Positions 2,710-43,563 of a DNA stretch of 64,000 nucleotides are shown here, piece by piece. Numbering within the stretch: position 1 is the stretch's first letter; every line of letters begins with the position of its first letter. The position numbers and the translations under genes were made by a program. This DNA is from Staphylococcus phage Twort: sequence record NC_007021.1, one strand, 5' to 3'. The notes below the pieces were generated by a model, which saw only the letters and a list, made by a program, of their open reading frames with translations, did no database searches and had not been told where the DNA came from.

Positions 2710-3176
2710 ATAGTTTAGATTTTGACACGATTAAAATTAAAGACAAGAATAATAATGAAACAATTCTTTCTATCCGAGAGGAACTTAAAATAGATGAGGT
2801 TAATTTAAATGAGTCTTTTATGACTCAATCTAGTAAGTTTGCTTATTGGGCCAACTTACTAGAAATTGTTCGTAGGTATAGTGAGGCTGAAGAACGGAAG
2901 CTAGAGACAATCGGAGCACAACTTAATCTATCTATTCGTGAATGGTATAAACAAAATAAAGAAAAGCCTACTAAAGATATGATTGAAGCTAGAATTATGA
3001 TAGACAAGAACTACCAAGAACAGTTAAAAGTAGTAGAAGAATGGAATTACAAAACAAAACAGTTACAATACGTAGTAAAAGCTTTTGAGCAACGTGTAAA
3101 CGCACTAACACATTTAGGTGCTGAACAAAGACTAACAAACAAGAATAAGGTTATTACAAACCCATATTCTCACTAA
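2694..3176 (+). CDS. hypothetical protein (coiled-coil rich)
   Basis: 160-aa ORF that overlaps its upstream neighbour, as in an operon. Confidence 0.6.
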   Translation: MEIQVDSLDFDTIKIKDKNNNETILSIREELKIDEVNLNESFMTQSSKFAYWANLLEIVRRYSEAEERKLETIGAQLNLSIREWYKQNKEKPTKDMIEARIMIDKNYQEQLKVVEEWNYKTKQLQYVVKAFEQRVNALTHLGAEQRLTNKNKVITNPYSH

Positions 3177-3184
3177 AAAAAGTA

Positions 3185-3213
3185 TTGACAAAGTATATAA
3201 ATTATGTTACAAT
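3185..3213 (+). promoter_or_regulatory. sigma-70-type promoter (TTGACA, 17-nt spacer, TACAAT)
   Basis: TTGACA at 3185-3190 and TACAAT at 3208-3213, upstream of RBS AAGGAGAG and the ATG at 3248. Confidence 0.6.
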
Positions 3214-5968: not shown

Positions 5969-6308
5969 CTTAATTGATGACAATATTAAAAAGGTTAAAA
6001 GGGCGTTAGTTGATACTAACTCCCTTGATATTGTACCTGAACCTTATCTTGCTATTGCTAGTAAGTTTAAGAAAGTAAGAGAAAAAGGTGAATCCGTTAT
6101 TCTTGAAGAAGCAGGATTTCCTCATACTAATTCTACTATTATGTATATTGATTATGTTTCTGACAGATGGGTTTTAGGTTACTCATATACAAAATCTGAA
6201 AGAGAAACTGTAAAAATACCTAGAACTATTCATTATTCTGACATTTATGTAACAGACAAATCACATAAAGTAAATGTAATTTTTGAAGGGGAGAATCCTT
6301 ATGAATAG
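5955..6308 (+). CDS. hypothetical protein
   Basis: 117-aa ORF with GAGGAAG upstream; the ATG at 5961 is an equally plausible start. Confidence 0.55.
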   Translation: MIMNNLIDDNIKKVKRALVDTNSLDIVPEPYLAIASKFKKVREKGESVILEEAGFPHTNSTIMYIDYVSDRWVLGYSYTKSERETVKIPRTIHYSDIYVTDKSHKVNVIFEGENPYE

Positions 6309-6936
6309 ATACGTAGTAGACCCTTCAATGAACGATTTAGAAAGGGATGTAGATACCTTACTTTATAAGTATAAAAACTTAAGGTGGTCACTCTACCATA
6401 GATATGCAGGTGTATTATCTAATGAATCAGAACGCCAAGAGTTACAAGAGTATATAGATGAGCAATTTATTAAACTTGTTAAAGAGTATAATATTAGAAG
6501 TGGTGTAGATTTTCCTGGCTATATTAAATCAAAACTTACATTAAGAGTTAGAAACAGTTATGTAAAGAAGAATAAGAAATATAAAAAAACAGAACTTCTA
6601 GGTAATAAAGATAATACTGTTGAAATGTTATCAGAACAGTTAGTTAGTGGTGTTAATGAGTCTGATGTAATTAGTTATGTGTTTGAAGGTGTAGAATTTA
6701 ACGACATTCAAAAACTATTACTCTATTACTTATTAGATGATGGGTATCATGAAGACTCTGCTATTATTAGACTTGTATCGGAGGAACTAGCAGTACAACG
6801 AAAAGAGGTATCTAAAGAGCTAGAAGAACTTAGAACTTATATTAAGTTTAAAATTGATGCTTATCATGAGAACTTTACTAAAAATTTAATGGAGCATGGC
6901 AAGGTAAATACAGAAAATACAACATGGGAGCTGTAA
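6301..6936 (+). CDS. putative sigma-factor-like transcription protein (by position and size; weak sequence support)
   Basis: The ORF track starts at the TTG at 6283. The ATG at 6301 follows GGGGAG with a 7-nt spacing. Twort-like phages carry a sigma-like gene right after the recA-like gene. Confidence 0.5.
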   Translation: MNRYVVDPSMNDLERDVDTLLYKYKNLRWSLYHRYAGVLSNESERQELQEYIDEQFIKLVKEYNIRSGVDFPGYIKSKLTLRVRNSYVKKNKKYKKTELLGNKDNTVEMLSEQLVSGVNESDVISYVFEGVEFNDIQKLLLYYLLDDGYHEDSAIIRLVSEELAVQRKEVSKELEELRTYIKFKIDAYHENFTKNLMEHGKVNTENTTWEL

Positions 6937-7006: not shown

Positions 7007-7645
7007 ATGGCTAAAAAGAATGTAAACGAGCTACTTAAGCAAGAAAAAGTAGAAGTAGCAAATAAATATTTACAAGTAGTAACACATAGAGATGGCTACA
7101 CACGCACACATGAAGGTCAATACTCATACAAAGTAGTTGACAAGTCTGGGGAACTATTTATTTTTCCTGTACAAACAGATGGGTATGGTAAATTACAAGT
7201 GATGGTAGATTCTCCTATCGCATACACGAACGGGAATAACATTCACTTTGTAGTAAATACATTAACAGACCCATATACGCAAGCGTTTATTCGTACAGAA
7301 GAAATCAAAGGTTTAGATAAAGGTAAACAACTTATTCAAGCCTTCTTAGCTTTCATTGAAGACCGTTTCCGTTTTGGTGTTTATAATGTATTTGTTGTTG
7401 GTAAGGAGGATGCTAAAACTGTAGCTGATGTTGCAGGTACAGATGCAGTTAAAGTAGAGGAAGTTAAAGGTCGTGCTTTTGAAGACCTAGTAGTTAACTA
7501 CCCAACAGGCAATGCTCGTGAAGATGTACGTCATGCAGACCAAAGTGAAGGTATGGGTGATACATCAGAGCCTTCAGCACCTGAAAGTCCTACTAATGTA
7601 CAGGTATCACCTGGTGAAACTTCAGCAGATATTTCAGCACAATAA
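7007..7645 (+). CDS. hypothetical protein whose C-terminal tail is PTNVQVSPGETSADIS
   Basis: 212-aa ORF with a strong RBS (AAAGGAGC). The last 16 aa are shared with the next gene. Confidence 0.7.
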   Translation: MAKKNVNELLKQEKVEVANKYLQVVTHRDGYTRTHEGQYSYKVVDKSGELFIFPVQTDGYGKLQVMVDSPIAYTNGNNIHFVVNTLTDPYTQAFIRTEEIKGLDKGKQLIQAFLAFIEDRFRFGVYNVFVVGKEDAKTVADVAGTDAVKVEEVKGRAFEDLVVNYPTGNAREDVRHADQSEGMGDTSEPSAPESPTNVQVSPGETSADISAQ

Positions 7646-7668
7646 AATAATATAAAGGAGTAATACAA

Positions 7669-8187
7669 TTGGCAACTAAATTTAATCTTTACAAAGATGA
7701 GAAACTTGTTAAAAGTGTAGACAAAGAAGAAATTGGTACAACAGCTATTACAATTGACTCTTTAGAGGCTGACACGGATTACCCTGAAGGTACTTACACT
7801 GTATCTTTCTCTAATGAGTCTGGGGAATCTCAAAAAGTTAATGTTCCTCAATTTAAAACTAAAGCTATTGGACTTATATCTATTACATTAGATGTAGATA
7901 CTTTAGACTTAACAGTTAAAGAAACACATCAATTAAATGTTACTTTTGAACCTAGCACAGCGTCTAATCAGAATGTAAAATATGAATCAGATAGTGAACA
8001 TGCAACAGTTACACCAGAAGGGTTAGTAGAAGCAGTATCCGTTGGTTCTGCAAACATCACTGTAACTTCTGAGGATGGCTCACATACAGATGTAGTAGCT
8101 GTAACAGTAAAAGAACCAATTCCTTCAGAACCTACTAATGTACAGGTATCACCTGGTGAAACTTCAGCAGATATTTCAGTAGAATAG
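7669..8187 (+). CDS. Big_2 (bacterial Ig-like) domain protein
   Basis: TTG start 8 nt after AAGGAG. Big_2-like motif ANITVTSEDGSHTDVVAVTV, and the same C-terminal tail as the previous ORF. Confidence 0.7.
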   Translation: MATKFNLYKDEKLVKSVDKEEIGTTAITIDSLEADTDYPEGTYTVSFSNESGESQKVNVPQFKTKAIGLISITLDVDTLDLTVKETHQLNVTFEPSTASNQNVKYESDSEHATVTPEGLVEAVSVGSANITVTSEDGSHTDVVAVTVKEPIPSEPTNVQVSPGETSADISVE

Positions 8188-8198
8188 GAGAGTAAATA

Positions 8199-8414
8199 AT
8201 GTCTAAAACGTTAAAAGTATATAAAAAAGAAACTGGTGAGGTAGTAGGACAAAAAGAAGTAACTACAAGTACTACTAAAATCACAATTACAGGTCTTGAG
8301 AAAGGTACTACATATAATACAGGAACTTTCCAAGTTTCTTACACAAATGAGTCTGGAGAATCTCAAAAAGTAGATGTTCCAGAATTTACTACAATCAATT
8401 CAGATATTGTATAA
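8199..8414 (+). CDS. small Ig-like domain protein
   Basis: 71 aa. Shares VS(F/Y)(S/T)NESGESQKV(N/D)VP(Q/E)F(K/T)T with ORF 7669 and with the N-terminus of the 1380-aa protein. Confidence 0.6.
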   Translation: MSKTLKVYKKETGEVVGQKEVTTSTTKITITGLEKGTTYNTGTFQVSYTNESGESQKVDVPEFTTINSDIV

Positions 8415-13633: not shown

Positions 13634-13971
13634 TAATTAATAATATTAGTGTTATTCTATAATTTTTACTTACAACAAAGTAGTTACTAAAATTAAAGGT
13701 GAGTCAAAGATTATAAAAATGCAAGAATAAAATAATGAAAAATATTTTCGAAATCCTACTTTATTTTGAAAATAATTACCATAGAAATTTACTACTAGAT
13801 AGTTACAAGTTTATTTCTATGGTTTTTTAAAAATAAAATTTTGGGAAAATAGTGATATATTAAGTATGAAATACCTCTTAAAACCTTATTCTAAAAGGGT
13901 TATAGTAGTTTACTATAAAGTGTTTCATCATTAGTTTAATTTATTATATTAATAAAGGAAGATACATAAAT

Positions 13972-16353: not shown

Positions 16354-16741
16354 TAAGAAATGGCTATTTTATGTATTACTTTTTGCTGTTCTATTAAGCG
16401 CTGTATTTGCATATTCTTGGACTTCTATTTACTATGAGAAAAATGCGTATGATTCAGGTGTAGTCCAAGACAGTGAAAGTAATAATACTAAAAATAATGG
16501 AGATATAGAATATGTTACAACAGTAACATTAAAAAAGGATACAGATAAGAAAGCTACATTTATGGATGAGTTACCAAACTTTTTACCTGGAAGAACGGAT
16601 GGTAAAACTATAGATAAAAGTTTTTACAAATCTAGTGACTTTCGTGAAGGTGAGAGATTTAAATTATATAGAATTTACACAAGAGATAATAATGGTGAGG
16701 TAACACATAAGTATCGTTTTGAAAAGGAAGTAGATAATTAG
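16337..16741 (+). CDS. membrane-anchored protein (N-terminal TM segment)
   Basis: Hydrophobic N-terminus; overlaps the upstream gene. Confidence 0.6.
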   Translation: MGKMSSKKWLFYVLLFAVLLSAVFAYSWTSIYYEKNAYDSGVVQDSESNNTKNNGDIEYVTTVTLKKDTDKKATFMDELPNFLPGRTDGKTIDKSFYKSSDFREGERFKLYRIYTRDNNGEVTHKYRFEKEVDN

Positions 16742-16873
16742 TGGCTCCTTTAACTATATCAATTATTATAGGTATTTGTATTATATATTATTTATTTGAG
16801 AAAGATTAGGTTAAGTGGAAGTTTTCCCTTGACCTTTTTTTATTTATCTGTATAATATTAATTAGGAGGGATT

Positions 16874-17116
16874 TTGATGATGAATTTAAAAATATTTTAT
16901 GAAGAGGTTAAACAATTAGAAAATAGAAAGATTGCCAAGGAGCAGGTATTACTAGAATCAATGAAAACATTTAGTAAGTTAAGAGGAACTTTAACAAATA
17001 GTCAATTAAGTCTTGACATTCTTTTAAATTATGGTATAGTTGAATATATCAAATATAAAAGGTATTTAGGAAGATTACAAAATTGTGTAGTAAAAGCATA
17101 TAAGGAGGAGTATTAA
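16874..17116 (+). CDS. hypothetical protein
   Basis: RBS AGGAGGGA. Confidence 0.55.
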   Translation: MMMNLKIFYEEVKQLENRKIAKEQVLLESMKTFSKLRGTLTNSQLSLDILLNYGIVEYIKYKRYLGRLQNCVVKAYKEEY

Positions 17117-17340
17117 TGTTATTTTTTAAAGAAAAGTTTTATAATGAATTAAGTTATTATAGAGGTGGACACAAGGATTTAGAAAGTATGTTTGAGTTAG
17201 CGTTAGAGTATATTGAGAAATTAGAAGAAGAAGATGAACAGCAGGTAACTGATTATGAGAACGCTATGGAAGAAGAATTAAGGGATGCTGTTGATGTAAT
17301 TGAGAGTCAGTTAGAAATTATTAAGGATATAGTTCGATGA
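17116..17340 (+). CDS. hypothetical acidic protein
   Basis: RBS AAGGAGGAG. Confidence 0.55.
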   Translation: MLFFKEKFYNELSYYRGGHKDLESMFELALEYIEKLEEEDEQQVTDYENAMEEELRDAVDVIESQLEIIKDIVR

Positions 17341-17501
17341 GTGGGTTTAATGATTTTCTTAAACAAGAATCTAAAAGGGTTAATAAACCACTCAAGAAAC
17401 AGAGAAAGAAGAAAGAAACACCTATAGAAGAAGTGCAAGAAAAGTTAGCTAAAATAAGAAGTAAATCAAAGTATATGGATTTAGGTAGGAGATATAAATG
17501 A
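17337..17501 (+). CDS. small basic protein (54 aa), translationally coupled; absent from the ORF track because it is under the size cutoff
   Basis: ATGA overlaps at both ends, with the upstream gene at 17337-17340 and the downstream gene at 17498-17501. Confidence 0.45.
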   Translation: MSGFNDFLKQESKRVNKPLKKQRKKKETPIEEVQEKLAKIRSKSKYMDLGRRYK

Positions 17502-17704
17502 AAACCTATACATGCAATAGGGTATCGGCTAGTGTTGAAGAACTTAAACAGTACAAAGATTTCAGGTTATTATTCGGGTTTGATGATGTTGTATTATATT
17601 TACTTAGTGAGCAAGATGAAGCAAAAACATTTAAAATGGAAAAGAAAGAATTAGAAAAAATAGAAAAGAAATATAGTAATGAACCTTTCTTTTCTTACTT
17701 ATAG
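17498..17704 (+). CDS. hypothetical protein
   Basis: 68-aa ORF with RBS GGTAGGAG. Confidence 0.5.
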   Translation: MKTYTCNRVSASVEELKQYKDFRLLFGFDDVVLYLLSEQDEAKTFKMEKKELEKIEKKYSNEPFFSYL

Positions 17705-17800
17705 GAGGGTATTGTAACAGGTAGTAATAATTTATAAAAACTTATAAATTTATTTGCATTTTTGGATAAAGTATGCTATGTTATATTTAGAGGTGATAAT

Positions 17801-17881
17801 ATGGCATATATGTCTATAGGAAAATTTAGTAAAGAGATAGGTGTTACACTCAAACATTACGTAATTGGCAGGGTGAATTAA
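17801..17881 (+). pseudogene. remnant of an IS607-type serine-recombinase TnpA: only the N-terminal MerR-like HTH (26 codons) survives
   Basis: MAYMSIGKFSKEIGVTLKHYVIGRVN* resembles the N-terminal HTH of IS607 OrfA proteins (the ...AK.AGVT.RTL..W pattern). Confidence 0.4.
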
Positions 17882-17884
17882 CTA

Positions 17885-18994
17885 ATGATAACGAAAAAAG
17901 TTAGACTTAAACCTACTAAACAACAGGAGTTAAAATTACGTAAATCAGCAGATATAGCACGATTTATATATAATTGGACTTTAGCAAAACAACAAGAAAA
18001 TTATAAACAAGGCAATAAATTTATACAAGATTCTGTGTTAAGAAAAGAAATAACACAATTAAAGAAAACTGAAGAGTTTAGATGGTTAAATGAAGTAAGT
18101 AATAATATTCCTAAGCAAGCAGTTAAAGATGCTTGTAATGCTTACAAAAGATTTTTTAAAAAACAATCTGGTTTTCCTAAATTTAAATCTAAAAAGAAAA
18201 CAAGACCTAGTTTCTATAATGATACACAAAAACTAAAAGTAAAAGAAAAATCAGTATTATTAGAAAAAGTGGGTTGGGTTAGAACATCTGAACAATTACC
18301 TGTAGGTACTAAGTACTACAATCCTAGAATCACTTTTGATGGTAAATATTGGTATATAAGTGTTTCTATTGAAGAAGAAAATAAATATGAAGAACTAACA
18401 AACGAATCTTTAGGTATTGATTTAGGAATAAAAGAATTAGCCGTATGCTCTGATGGAAGTATTTATGAAAATATTAACAAAACAATAAGAGTTAAAAAAC
18501 TAGAAAAACGATTACGTAGATTGCAACGTAAGGTATCTCGTAAATACCAAAATAATAAAGAAGGGAGTACCTTTGTCAAAACTTGCAATATTATAAAACT
18601 TGAAAAACAAATTAAACTCTTACAACGAAGATTGTCTAACATTCGTAAAAACTATTTACATCAAACAACAACTTCTATAGTGAAAACCAAACCTAGAAGA
18701 ATTGTTATAGAAGATTTGAATGTAAGTGGTATGATGAAGAATAGACACTTAGCTAAAGCAATACAAAAACAAGGATTCTATGAGTTCCGTAAACAACTAG
18801 AATATAAGTGTGGAAGAAAAGGTATAGAACTTGTTATTGCAGATAGATTCTTTCCTTCTAGTAAAACATGCTCTAATTGTGGTAACATCCACAAAAACTT
18901 AAAACTATCAGATAGAATATTTAAGTGTGACTGTGGTTTTAGTATTGATAGAGACCTTAATGCTAGTATTAATTTAGCTAATTATAATATTTAG
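17885..18994 (+). CDS. tnpB: TnpB (OrfB, IS605/IS607 family); RuvC-like RNA-guided nuclease, apparently intact
   Basis: N-terminal K.RL.PTK.QE...ARF.YN. RuvC-I GIDLGI, RuvC-II IEDLNV, zinc finger CSNCGN...CDCG, and RuvC-III DRDLNASINL. Confidence 0.85.
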   Translation: MITKKVRLKPTKQQELKLRKSADIARFIYNWTLAKQQENYKQGNKFIQDSVLRKEITQLKKTEEFRWLNEVSNNIPKQAVKDACNAYKRFFKKQSGFPKFKSKKKTRPSFYNDTQKLKVKEKSVLLEKVGWVRTSEQLPVGTKYYNPRITFDGKYWYISVSIEEENKYEELTNESLGIDLGIKELAVCSDGSIYENINKTIRVKKLEKRLRRLQRKVSRKYQNNKEGSTFVKTCNIIKLEKQIKLLQRRLSNIRKNYLHQTTTSIVKTKPRRIVIEDLNVSGMMKNRHLAKAIQKQGFYEFRKQLEYKCGRKGIELVIADRFFPSSKTCSNCGNIHKNLKLSDRIFKCDCGFSIDRDLNASINLANYNI

Positions 18995-19153
18995 ATTATC
19001 ACTAATAAGATACTAAATATATGTACCATTCGTTGTATGGGAATTTAAGCCTTTGGAGTATCATACAAACTTGAGTAGAGTAAATGAATATAGTAATTTA
19101 CTCAAAAGGGGATACGTTGAAAAAGGAATATAATTTATAAAGTTTTATAAATT
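18995..19153 (+). ncRNA. candidate omega RNA / right-end region of the TnpB element
   Basis: Called from position, on the 3' flank of tnpB. There is a hairpin GAGTAAAT...ATTTACTC and a terminal palindrome. No covariance evidence. Confidence 0.3.
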
Positions 19154-19171
19154 TTTGACAACGGGAATCAT

Positions 19172-19372
19172 ATGTTAACTATTCTAGTACTCATTTGGGT
19201 ATTACTATTTTTAACTGTTTTATTTAATATTAAAGTAGGGAATATTTTTATTCTAGGTGATTATGTAGAATTTAAAGACAAATTTGTGGCAGTATCGTTC
19301 TTATTATTTTTATTGCTGTCTATGTTAATTGGTTTAATAATTATTCTTAAAGGAGTGTATGGACAATGGTAA
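19172..19372 (+). CDS. small membrane protein
   Basis: Hydrophobic 66-aa ORF. Confidence 0.45.
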   Translation: MLTILVLIWVLLFLTVLFNIKVGNIFILGDYVEFKDKFVAVSFLLFLLLSMLIGLIIILKGVYGQW

Positions 19373-19644
19373 AAGGAAACATTAAAGAACTTTTAAATTG
19401 TATTTGTGGTTGTGTAGATTCATTTATGGATGAAGGTAAAAGTTATGTAGTGTATTCAGACAAAAAAGTATTTGTTAAGTATAAAGGTGTTGTTATTGCA
19501 AGTATTGAAGATGATGTTGTTCATAGTAATGTATACCAACTTAAGACTGGTACTATAGAAAAACAAACCTTATATACTTTAGTTAAAGCACTTCAGTATT
19601 TAGTTAGTCTGGAGTATAGAGAACGAGAAGATATAAATATTTAA
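19366..19644 (+). CDS. hypothetical protein
   Basis: 92-aa ORF. Confidence 0.55.
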   Translation: MVKGNIKELLNCICGCVDSFMDEGKSYVVYSDKKVFVKYKGVVIASIEDDVVHSNVYQLKTGTIEKQTLYTLVKALQYLVSLEYREREDINI

Positions 19645-19653
19645 AAAAGTTTA

Positions 19654-19686
19654 GGGAATCTGTTGACATTCAGATTCCCTTTTGTT
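19654..19686 (+). terminator. terminator hairpin that overlaps the next -35
   Basis: GGGAATCTG-ttgacatt-CAGATTCCC followed by TTTT. Confidence 0.7.
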
Positions 19687-19691
19687 ATACT
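19663..19691 (+). promoter_or_regulatory. sigma-70-type promoter (TTGACA-17-TATACT)
   Basis: Consensus elements; the -35 sits in the terminator loop. Confidence 0.65.
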
Positions 19692-19722
19692 CTAATTAAG
19701 ATAAGAAAAGGAGATGTTTCAT

Positions 19723-20286
19723 ATGAAAAAATTATTTATGGTAGGAAGTTTAGGTCTGATGTTATTCGTAGGAGGTTGTGGTACTACAGAGCATAAAGAA
19801 GGTTCTCTGGAATCTAACACTAATGAAGTTGTAACAACAGAACAAAGTACAACACAAGAGTATAATGGAAGTAGTGAAGGTGGAAACGGAAACCCTAATG
19901 CAAATGTAACAACTGACCCAAGTGAAAAATATTTATCTGACTTTTTTGAGTCTAGGGCACAAGGAACAATATTAGATAGATTAGACCGCTATGCAGAATT
20001 AGTAGGTAAAATTAATAACCCAGAGGAAAACGTAGAAGCAGAAACATTACAATATGCTATTAAGAATATGGACACTTATGTAGAAGAGTTACCTGTTGAA
20101 ACAGAAGACGATGCTAAGGCACAAGAACAACTAAGACAAATGGTTCAATACTATAAGCAAGCAAATGAAAACTTTAAAGAATACCAAGATACTGGTGATA
20201 TAAATAAACTAAATAAAGGTAACGAAATGTATAATGAAGGATATACTTTAGAAGTAGAAGTAAAAAGAGGGACTAACTTAATTTAG
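19723..20286 (+). CDS. lipoprotein (signal peptide plus a LFVGGC lipobox-like motif)
   Basis: The ORF track starts at 19714. The ATG at 19723 is 9 nt after AAAAGGAG. The N-terminus is MKKLFMVGSLGLMLFVGGCGT. Confidence 0.65.
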   Translation: MKKLFMVGSLGLMLFVGGCGTTEHKEGSLESNTNEVVTTEQSTTQEYNGSSEGGNGNPNANVTTDPSEKYLSDFFESRAQGTILDRLDRYAELVGKINNPEENVEAETLQYAIKNMDTYVEELPVETEDDAKAQEQLRQMVQYYKQANENFKEYQDTGDINKLNKGNEMYNEGYTLEVEVKRGTNLI

Positions 20287-20302
20287 GAGGAGGAGATAAA
20301 TA

Positions 20303-43491: not shown

Positions 43492-43563
43492 TGGACTCTG
43501 TAGGGATTGAACCTACACTCCAACGCTTATGAGGCGTTTGCTTTACCATTAAGCTAAGAGTCC
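43492..43563 (-). tRNA. tRNA-Met (anticodon CAT)
   Basis: A full cloverleaf folds by hand: acceptor GGACTCT/AGAGTCC, D arm GCTT-AATGGTA-AAGC, anticodon arm AACGC-CTCATAA-GCGTT, T arm GTAGG-TTCAATC-CCTAC. CCA is not encoded. Confidence 0.85.

Follow-up and report, generated by a model that had tools for sequence, protein, structure and literature searches.

What does the DNA between the tnpB gene of Staphylococcus phage Twort and the small gene that follows it encode? We analyzed a stretch of 64,000 nucleotides of this phage (sequence record NC_007021.1), referred to here as the window, in which tnpB occupies 17885–18994 on the plus strand. The original prediction, made without database searches, had placed a candidate omega RNA at 18850–19160, with its guide read from the DNA outside the right end of the element. 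Covariance-model and comparative evidence indicates that residues 18995–19164 very probably encode the scaffold of a RAGATH-18-type reRNA (omega RNA), which would be the guide RNA of the adjacent IS607-family TnpB. The idea of a TnpB guide RNA downstream of tnpB, with a guide taken from beyond the right end, is thus upheld by the RNA match and by the boundary evidence; the borders of the RNA and of the guide have to be moved.

The region from 17000 to 20000 was scanned on both strands against all Rfam families at a permissive E-value. RAGATH-18 (RF03064) matches 19050–19128 (+) over the full model (positions 1–71) with 67.6 bits, compared to a gathering score of 44.9, and E = 1e-12. This is the outcome of the covariance-model search that had been proposed for the candidate RNA. 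The match starts 56 nt after the tnpB stop codon, lies on the tnpB strand and is the single RAGATH-18 match in the window. Other matches in the scanned region (snoR9, STnc410 and ceN30) are all far under threshold, and no group I intron was found by Rfam in the window. The only other Rfam match in the window is a tRNA gene at 43492–43563 (−), with 72.5 bits. The imperfect hairpin noticed earlier at about 19074–19106 is real and was placed to within 1–4 nt: it contains a perfect 8-bp stem, GAGTAAAT (19078–19085) with ATTTACTC (19096–19103), which is the variable apical stem of RAGATH-18 and is present in the minimum free energy fold.

RAGATH-18 RNAs have been characterized previously, and 64% of them adjoin IS607-family tnpB genes (Ren et al. 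2024, PMC11061315). RAGATH-18-derived reRNAs bind IS607 TnpBs and guide cleavage of double-stranded DNA that depends on a target-adjacent motif (TAM); they consist of a 5′ flank, the RAGATH-18 motif and a 3′ flank, followed by a non-conserved guide, for which 20 nt is optimal in ISFba1 (PMC11061315). The RAGATH-18-type guide RNA of IS607 TnpB is therefore already known, and the window copy is an ordinary member of this class. GenBank records of related phages already annotate the RNA as RAGATH-18.

We aligned 24 distinct copies of the region from the tnpB stop codon to the right end of the element. Standard pairs occupy 93.1% of the cells of the whole structure, compared to 39–44% when the partners are slid by 1–3 columns. 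Double-sided changes are seen in 22 of the 38 pairs, and none of 500 shuffles reached the observed covariation score. A conserved secondary structure in aligned tnpB 3′ regions, as the original prediction anticipated, is thus present. The helices of the RAGATH-18 motif, which forms the core of the scaffold (19050–19128, +), covary, and both flanks (55 nt on the 5′ side and 36 nt on the 3′ side) are conserved and covarying as well. The 5′ flank (18995–19049, +) contains a small hairpin (18997–19000 with 19009–19012; 83% of cells paired and three pairs with double changes) and a stem-loop with the loop TCGTTGT (19026–19029 with 19037–19040; 96.9% of cells paired and double changes in all four pairs). 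The core is followed by a 3′ stem-loop, AATTTATAAA-GT-TTTATAAATT (19132–19153, +), which corresponds to the 22-bp palindrome reported earlier at exactly this position and recurs at this place in each of the 24 homologues (87.7% of cells paired). This stem-loop is mostly conserved, with a double change in one of nine pairs, and its sequence differs yet is still self-complementary in copies L019 (GAAGCTT/AAGCTTC) and L036. The tail of the scaffold, TTTTGACAACGG (19154–19164, +), is also the right end of the element. Residues ACAACG of the tail (19158–19163) form a long-range helix with the loop of the 5′ stem-loop (CGTTGT, 19031–19036), which is paired in 91% of cells and covaries at one position (GC in 17 copies, AU in 6 and CG in 1). 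On this alignment, the palindrome is a stem-loop within the scaffold, which runs 11 nt past it. On the opposite side, conserved structure begins at ∼18997 and nothing ties 18850–18994 to the RNA, so that the proposed overlap with tnpB has to be given up.

The pairing of motif and protein extends well beyond the window. Searches of IMG/VR and of bacterial genomes supplied TnpB relatives with 42–92% identity, among them Bacillus relatives, Paenibacillus, Clostridium, Robinsoniella and Butyricicoccus. RAGATH-18 is located 55–75 nt after the tnpB stop codon in every fetched homologue with a TnpB at least 42% identical, and was absent from the fetched TnpB relatives at or below 36% identity. These relatives, from phages and Firmicutes genomes, gave 21 TnpB-linked matches and one solo copy. 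A common order is seen 3′ of the motif in every case: a short A-rich linker, a hairpin, a T run and ...AACGG, and then unrelated sequence. Every family member ends in ACGG.

The element itself can be delimited on both sides. Homology among eight copies from different phage contexts stops at 19164 (...TTTTTGACAACGG), and the next base differs. Across the 24 family members in total, the shared sequence likewise extends to ...TTGACAACGG at 19164 and diverges from the next base on. The right end is thus 11 nt beyond the palindrome, at which the region had been thought to terminate (19153). On the left, homology to phage VL10, whose tnpA is complete, starts at 17711. The uninterrupted site is found in Staphylococcus pseudintermedius phage DH2. 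When 17709–19164 is removed from the window, the joined flanks TTATAGGAGG/GAATCATATGTTAAC (the slash marks a junction, here and below) are colinear with TTATAAAGAGGTGAATTTATGTTAG of DH2, a site that can also be written TTATAAAGAGG/TGAATTTATG. We therefore define the element as 17709–19164 (+; 1456 bp), since shared homology ends there and the joined flanks are colinear with DH2. GG is found at both junctions, and the boundary is ambiguous by 1 nt, as both junctions read GGG, with the third G at 17709. A search of INPHARED with the window flanks (16700–17709 and 19165–20300) returned DH2 as the sole match, at 77–81% identity; by megablast, the left flank gave no match and the right flank gave DH2 alone, at 81%.

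IS607 elements end in GG, use a GG target and lack terminal inverted repeats, and their TnpA binds multiple subterminal repeats (PMC13565253, PMC10690162); they are described as producing no target duplication (PMC13565253). In the window, the left junction of the element reads AGGAGG/G and its right end ...AACGG/, and the element is inserted at GG without terminal inverted repeats. Its joined flanks equal the empty site and show no target-site duplication, although related copies have partial repeats at their left junctions (see below). A left-end palindrome, AATTTATAA-AAAC-TTATAAATT (17728–17752), is similar to the one at the right end, is kept in the left ends of other copies and is a candidate subterminal repeat, which by analogy to published IS607 biology would bind TnpA. 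It is followed on its 3′ side by a promoter-like TTGCAT...TATGTT. The insertion separates a downstream open reading frame (ORF) of 66 residues, hydrophobic by sequence (19172–19372, +), from its Shine-Dalgarno sequence AGGAGG (17703–17708, +), which is at the same time a TAM-like motif abutting the left end. In DH2 the orthologue of this ORF directly follows the Shine-Dalgarno sequence. The ORF has no Pfam match.

The protein encoded by tnpB is intact (369 residues), with the RuvC catalytic triad D179/E276/D357, a zinc ribbon (CSNC...CDC) and the Pfam domains HTH_OrfB_IS605, OrfB_IS605 and Cas12f1-like_TNB. The closest solved structure is that of ISFba1 TnpB (PDB 8IAZ; E 8e-88 for residues 5–365), whose catalytic residues D194/E290/D371 align with the triad of the window protein; the match to ISDra2 TnpB is weaker (E 3e-45). 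The gene is exactly 1110 nt long in all eight phage copies compared, and its ratio of nonsynonymous to synonymous substitution rates (dN/dS) relative to the window copy is 0.11–0.15 at dS 0.31–0.64, which demonstrates purifying selection. The scaffold is 85–96% identical in the same comparisons, a higher conservation than that of synonymous tnpB sites. No ORF of at least 40 residues is found on either strand between the tnpB stop codon and the ORF at 19172.

The upstream serine-recombinase TnpA that characterizes IS607 elements is missing from the window copy. A remnant of 24 codons and a stop is located at 17802–17876 (+) and begins with MAYMSIGKFSKEIGVT..., the N-terminus of a serine recombinase. 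Compared to VL10 (L001), whose tnpA has 615 nt, ∼505 bp of the gene are deleted: window 17711–17870 corresponds to 2501–2661 of VL10, and 17872–17900 to 3167–3195. Because only these 24 codons remain, the window copy is, by its sequence, a non-autonomous IS607 derivative residing in a Staphylococcus Twort-like (Herelleviridae) phage. The loss is not confined to Twort: independent events of different kinds have removed or shortened tnpA in the window, L012, the S25-3/PALS_1 type, phage 110, Remus and L017/L018. The MerR-like N-terminus of tnpA alone remains in the S25-3/PALS_1 type, the left end is present and tnpA gone in phage 110, and both are gone in Remus and L017/L018. The tnpB gene and the scaffold are intact in all of these copies, a pattern that would fit a cassette kept by TnpB-dependent homing rather than by transposition.

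Under the published rule, the guide is formed by the 16–20 nt that adjoin the right end on its outer side. The predicted guide is therefore GAAUCAUAUGUUAACUAUUC (equal to GAATCATATGTTAACTATTC) at 19165–19184 (+), where the non-conserved sequence begins. The stretch directly beyond 19153, which had been taken for the guide, comprises 11 nt of scaffold. The predicted guide consists of the 7-nt spacer that precedes the ATG, on the 3′ side of the Shine-Dalgarno sequence in the uninterrupted gene, and of 13 nt (ATG and 10 nt) from the start of the ORF at 19172–19372. An earlier assignment of the guide to the promoter and start of the next gene thus holds for the start region; it fails for the promoter, since TTGACA at 19155–19160 is part of the scaffold tail and a scan of the plus strand found no matching −10 box. 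The guide is unique in the window, up to three mismatches.

A candidate TAM is found at the opposite junction. Published TAMs of RAGATH-18 TnpBs are 5′-AGGAG or 5′-GAGGG (PMC11061315), both of which are held by the left flank TATAGGAGGG (17700–17709). Ten TAMs inferred from related copies and their empty sites (AGAGG, AAAGG, GGAGG, TGAGG, ATAGG, GGGGG and similar) have a purine at −3 in every case and C in none. The IS607 element of Clostridium botulinum (Cbo) offers a precedent: its TnpA integrates at GG, its omega RNA scaffold ends in ...UCGG (Zedaveinyte et al., PMC10690162), and its TAM, TGGG, differs at −3 from its own end, TCGG, which prevents self-cleavage (PMC10690162). The right end AACGG of the window element parallels this arrangement. 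Joining the left flank to the guide gives the predicted target, TATAGGAGG-GAATCATATG..., which is the uninterrupted junction of the element-free allele (homing site). The prediction thus concerns the same locus in element-free genomes, and not a gene of the host or of a competing phage.

The tnpB region is found at 80–90% identity in 61 phage records, all of Staphylococcus Herelleviridae and in varied neighbourhoods: upstream of the portal gene in VL10, between the ribonucleotide reductase and DNA polymerase genes in phage 110 and SEP1, between tail lysin genes in S25-3 and phiSA12, beside tRNA-Ser in Remus, and at other sites in PALS_1 and PG-2021_10. Of 23 family insertions, 20 have an ORF of at least 40 codons that starts 3–18 nt beyond the right end, compared to 21% of control GG sites in the same sequences. 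The family thus appears almost always to insert between the GG of a Shine-Dalgarno sequence and the start codon. As a result, the TAM would fall on the ribosome-binding site, and the guide would cover the start of translation.

A further regularity concerns the left junctions. In several related copies, the first 5–11 nt of the element after the left junction match the start of the right flank, that is, of the guide. The repeat is 11 nt in S25-3/phiSA12 (1189–1200 and 2830–2840 of L008; compared with the empty site of phage K), 9 nt in VL10 (2501–2509 and 4464–4472 of L001; compared with Koomba-kaat_1), 9/11 nt in phage 110/BE06 (∼13815–13826 and 15212–15222 of L051/L052; compared with BE05/80A) and 9 nt in L017 (2458–2466 and 3824–3832). 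The left copy of phage 110/BE06 departs from the guide at positions 6–7. Cognate pairs of left end and flank share 7.8 of 12 positions on average, compared to 3.7 of 12 for non-cognate pairs, a difference that is biased upwards as some junctions were picked by similarity. In the three cases checked against an empty site, the upstream gene keeps its stop codon through the repeat. The window copy has little similarity of this kind (5/12). Insertion at a second GG, a target-site duplication from a staggered cut and an RNA intermediate were considered as sources of the partial duplication, and none fits the junction sequences. The partial guide copies could be scars of acquisition by break repair, or partial self-targets that are bound without cutting. 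Insertion between Shine-Dalgarno sequence and ATG and guide-like left junctions are family-wide regularities without mention in the cited papers on IS607 and RAGATH-18 TnpBs.

Occupied and empty alleles coexist among close relatives in the Sepunavirus group, where 10 records are occupied and 10 near-identical records are empty at one site. Occupied BE06 and 110 are 99–100% identical to empty BE05 and 80A within ±3.5 kb of the site (L050–L053). Single-nucleotide polymorphisms at −2387, −2066, −1568, −1565, −1101, −377, −335 and +192 co-segregate with the element; the left side is more polymorphic, with a mosaic patch from −3500 to −2500. This pattern may represent a co-conversion tract and would be compatible with recombinational acquisition, for which it is suggestive, not decisive.

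The evidence above has to be set against other explanations of the conserved sequences. The palindromes at 17728–17752 and 19132–19153 could mainly be DNA sites, namely subterminal repeats bound by TnpA, with TTGACAACGG as the recombination core and the RNA pairing incidental. A near-identical palindrome does mark the two ends of the element and is absent from the rest of the 64 kb: the motif TTTATAAANNNTTATAAA occurs twice, at 17731–17748 and 19134–19151, compared to 0.49 occurrences expected by chance. It would also suit the multiple subterminal repeats and GG ends known for IS607 (PMC13565253, PMC10690162), as would the 3′ stem-loop pairs that are mostly just conserved, with their single double change in nine. 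A TnpA site, however, would be of no use to the copies without tnpA, some of them also without the left end (Remus, L017/L018), which nevertheless retain the right-end palindrome. Moreover, self-complementarity is kept in L019 and L036 despite the changed stem-loop sequence, and covariation links the tail to the loop of the 5′ stem-loop. We thus regard a predominantly DNA-level role as unlikely, though worth keeping in mind; as an additional role, compatible with that of the RNA, it is plausible. That the whole element is a decaying relic, with tnpA gone and RNA and TnpB functionless, seems to us improbable. The reduction of tnpA to 24 codons, the solo RAGATH-18 fragments without tnpB in other Staphylococcus phages and the lack of a matching target in the public collections scanned would all be expected of a dead element. 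A relic would not be expected to have kept tnpB at full length (369 residues) in eight phage copies with a dN/dS of 0.11–0.15 and the catalytic triad intact, or a scaffold better conserved than tnpB synonymous sites. Nor does decay account for independent tnpA deletions (window, L012, S25-3 type, phage 110 and Remus) that coexist with intact tnpB and scaffold.

Two further explanations would detach the region from DNA cleavage, and both seem to us very improbable. The region could control the small gene downstream in cis, as a leader, promoter or terminator, and be unrelated to tnpB: it lies directly upstream of the ORF, TTGACA at 19155–19160 resembles a −35 box, and an A/U hairpin followed by a T run is loosely terminator-like. 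The same 170 nt, however, accompany tnpB into at least seven unrelated gene neighbourhoods, conservation stops at 19164 regardless of the gene that follows, and a consensus scan gave neither a plus-strand promoter from 19155 nor a terminator in 18995–19164. Alternatively, TnpB could be domesticated in the manner of TldR, as a nuclease-dead RNA-guided regulator that binds the start of the next gene or the left junction. The guide does overlap a translation-start region, and in several related copies the left junction consists of a TAM and a 5–11-nt partial guide match, which could permit binding without cutting. Against such a regulator stand the intact RuvC triad, a guide that is whatever flanks the right end in each context, and AACGG, which is not a TAM, ahead of the target at the start of the gene itself; we give this explanation little more than a mention. 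A RAGATH-18-type reRNA scaffold of the adjacent TnpB remains the best description of 18995–19164.

Published work on the family suggests how such a cassette would operate. Transcription through tnpB and the scaffold would continue into the right flank, and TnpB would bind the scaffold and use the 16–20 nt after 19164 as its guide. The complex would then cut DNA wherever GAATCATATGTTAAC... directly follows a TAM with RGG at its end (here AGGAGG). The uninterrupted allele would provide this substrate, either in an element-free relative that infects the same cell or after excision. Repair by recombination with an element-bearing copy would re-install the element (homing). Its own right junction would be spared because AACGG, with C at −3, stands there in place of the TAM. 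We tentatively propose, as a possibility rather than as a likelihood, that in strictly lytic Twort-like phages the cassette of tnpB and reRNA persists without a transposase as an RNA-guided homing endonuclease, with the GG of the Shine-Dalgarno sequence as its TAM and the translation start of the next gene as its guide, spreading during co-infection by cutting the uninterrupted junction between Shine-Dalgarno sequence and ATG.

Several observations weigh against parts of this account. The fold of 18995–19164 as a single sequence is not better than those of its shuffles (z = −1.0); because thermodynamic stability is not significant, the case for the scaffold rests on the covariance model and on covariation. 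The 3′ flank has 36 nt with one stem-loop and a tail, compared to 64 nt with two stem-loops in ISFba1, and activity of the shorter form is assumed. TAMs inferred for related copies (AGAGG, AAAGG, TGAGG and ATAGG) differ from the published AGGAG. A search for guide and TAM in phage collections, as had been suggested, yielded no predicted-target DNA in IMG/VR (0 matches with or without the TAM). The single metagenome match to the guide is attributable to chance, as it lies in unrelated sequence and is preceded by TTTGA rather than by a GG-type TAM. DH2, the closest phage with an empty site, is too diverged at the site for a guide match.

Related sequences were also observed outside the complete copies of this element. 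VL10 (L001) has a second, solo RAGATH-18 at 6288–6377 (63.8 bits), which adjoins a 45-residue ‘transposase’ remnant in a region with a split portal gene and has a decayed right end (..AACTGCCCG). RAGATH-18 fragments without tnpB are present in the Staphylococcus phages StAP1 (KX532239), SA11 and SAP_01, and also in matches H75–H83. Phage 110 (L052) carries a second, different tnpB element at 7213–8322, whose protein starts with MLRAYKVEIQPT. It is inserted at AAAAGG/AGGAAAC, which is Shine-Dalgarno-like, is absent from 80A, BE05 and BE06, and has the right end ..TAGTAGC(AGG), resembling that of the Alicyclobacillus copy L036. A HEARO RNA (IscB-type omega RNA; 162.6 bits) is located at 2112–2321 of an IMG/VR contig (L020) and ends 180 nt upstream of the gene for a distant TnpB relative (35% identity). 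Within the window, a G+C-rich hairpin of 10 bp in the region 19653–19691 scores as a terminator on both strands (19653–19680), overlaps a near-consensus promoter at 19663–19691 (TTGACA, 17-nt spacer, TG-TATACT) and closes the block of small ORFs after the element.

For annotation, a transposase followed by intergenic hairpins becomes a three-part unit of tnpB, a ∼170-nt reRNA scaffold and a 20-nt guide, and the exact guide and TAM-side sequence are now defined for target searches or editing. The biological value is modest: a family that has been characterized biochemically and structurally since 2024 gains an example that is carried by a phage, lacks tnpA and has a shorter 3′ flank.

The closest known system is the TnpB and reRNA of ISFba1. 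In both, RF03064 is found immediately after an IS607-type tnpB and in the same orientation, homology between the proteins spans their entire length with an aligned D-E-D triad, the RNA is built of 5′ flank, RAGATH-18 and 3′ flank with a guide from the flank past the right end, and a G-rich TAM (a candidate in the window) resembles a Shine-Dalgarno sequence. The ISFba1 reRNA starts 13 nt after the tnpB stop codon (PMC11061315). It has the longer 3′ flank of two stem-loops (64 nt), whereas the window has 36 nt with one stem-loop and the tail. The TAMs inferred for the window subgroup end in RGG (AGAGG, AAAGG and GGAGG) and are not strictly AGGAG. ISFba1 resides in a gut Firmicute, whereas the window copy belongs to a lytic Staphylococcus phage and has its tnpA deleted.

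The IStron of Cbo IS607 is likewise a serine-recombinase element inserted at GG, with a scaffold ending in ...CGG and a TAM in which a purine replaces the C. The same logic would apply to the window, with AGGAGG on the left and AACGG on the right, and a homing role has been proposed for Cbo (PMC10690162). The window element differs in the absence of a group I intron, in its TAM and in its scaffold family (RAGATH-18). ISDra2, of the IS200/IS605 group, shares the guide RNA at the right end, the guide from the adjacent flank and the TAM beside the left end; in contrast, it has TTGAT as its TAM and a Y1 HUH enzyme as its transposase, and part of its omega RNA is encoded within the 3′ end of tnpB. 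Free-standing homing endonucleases of the T4 Seg/Mob type resemble the element in their sporadic occurrence among near-identical phages, their intergenic positions and their predicted spread by recombination in co-infection. The target would be recognized by RNA here, rather than by protein, homing of the window element is a prediction, and the likeness between the two is functional only.

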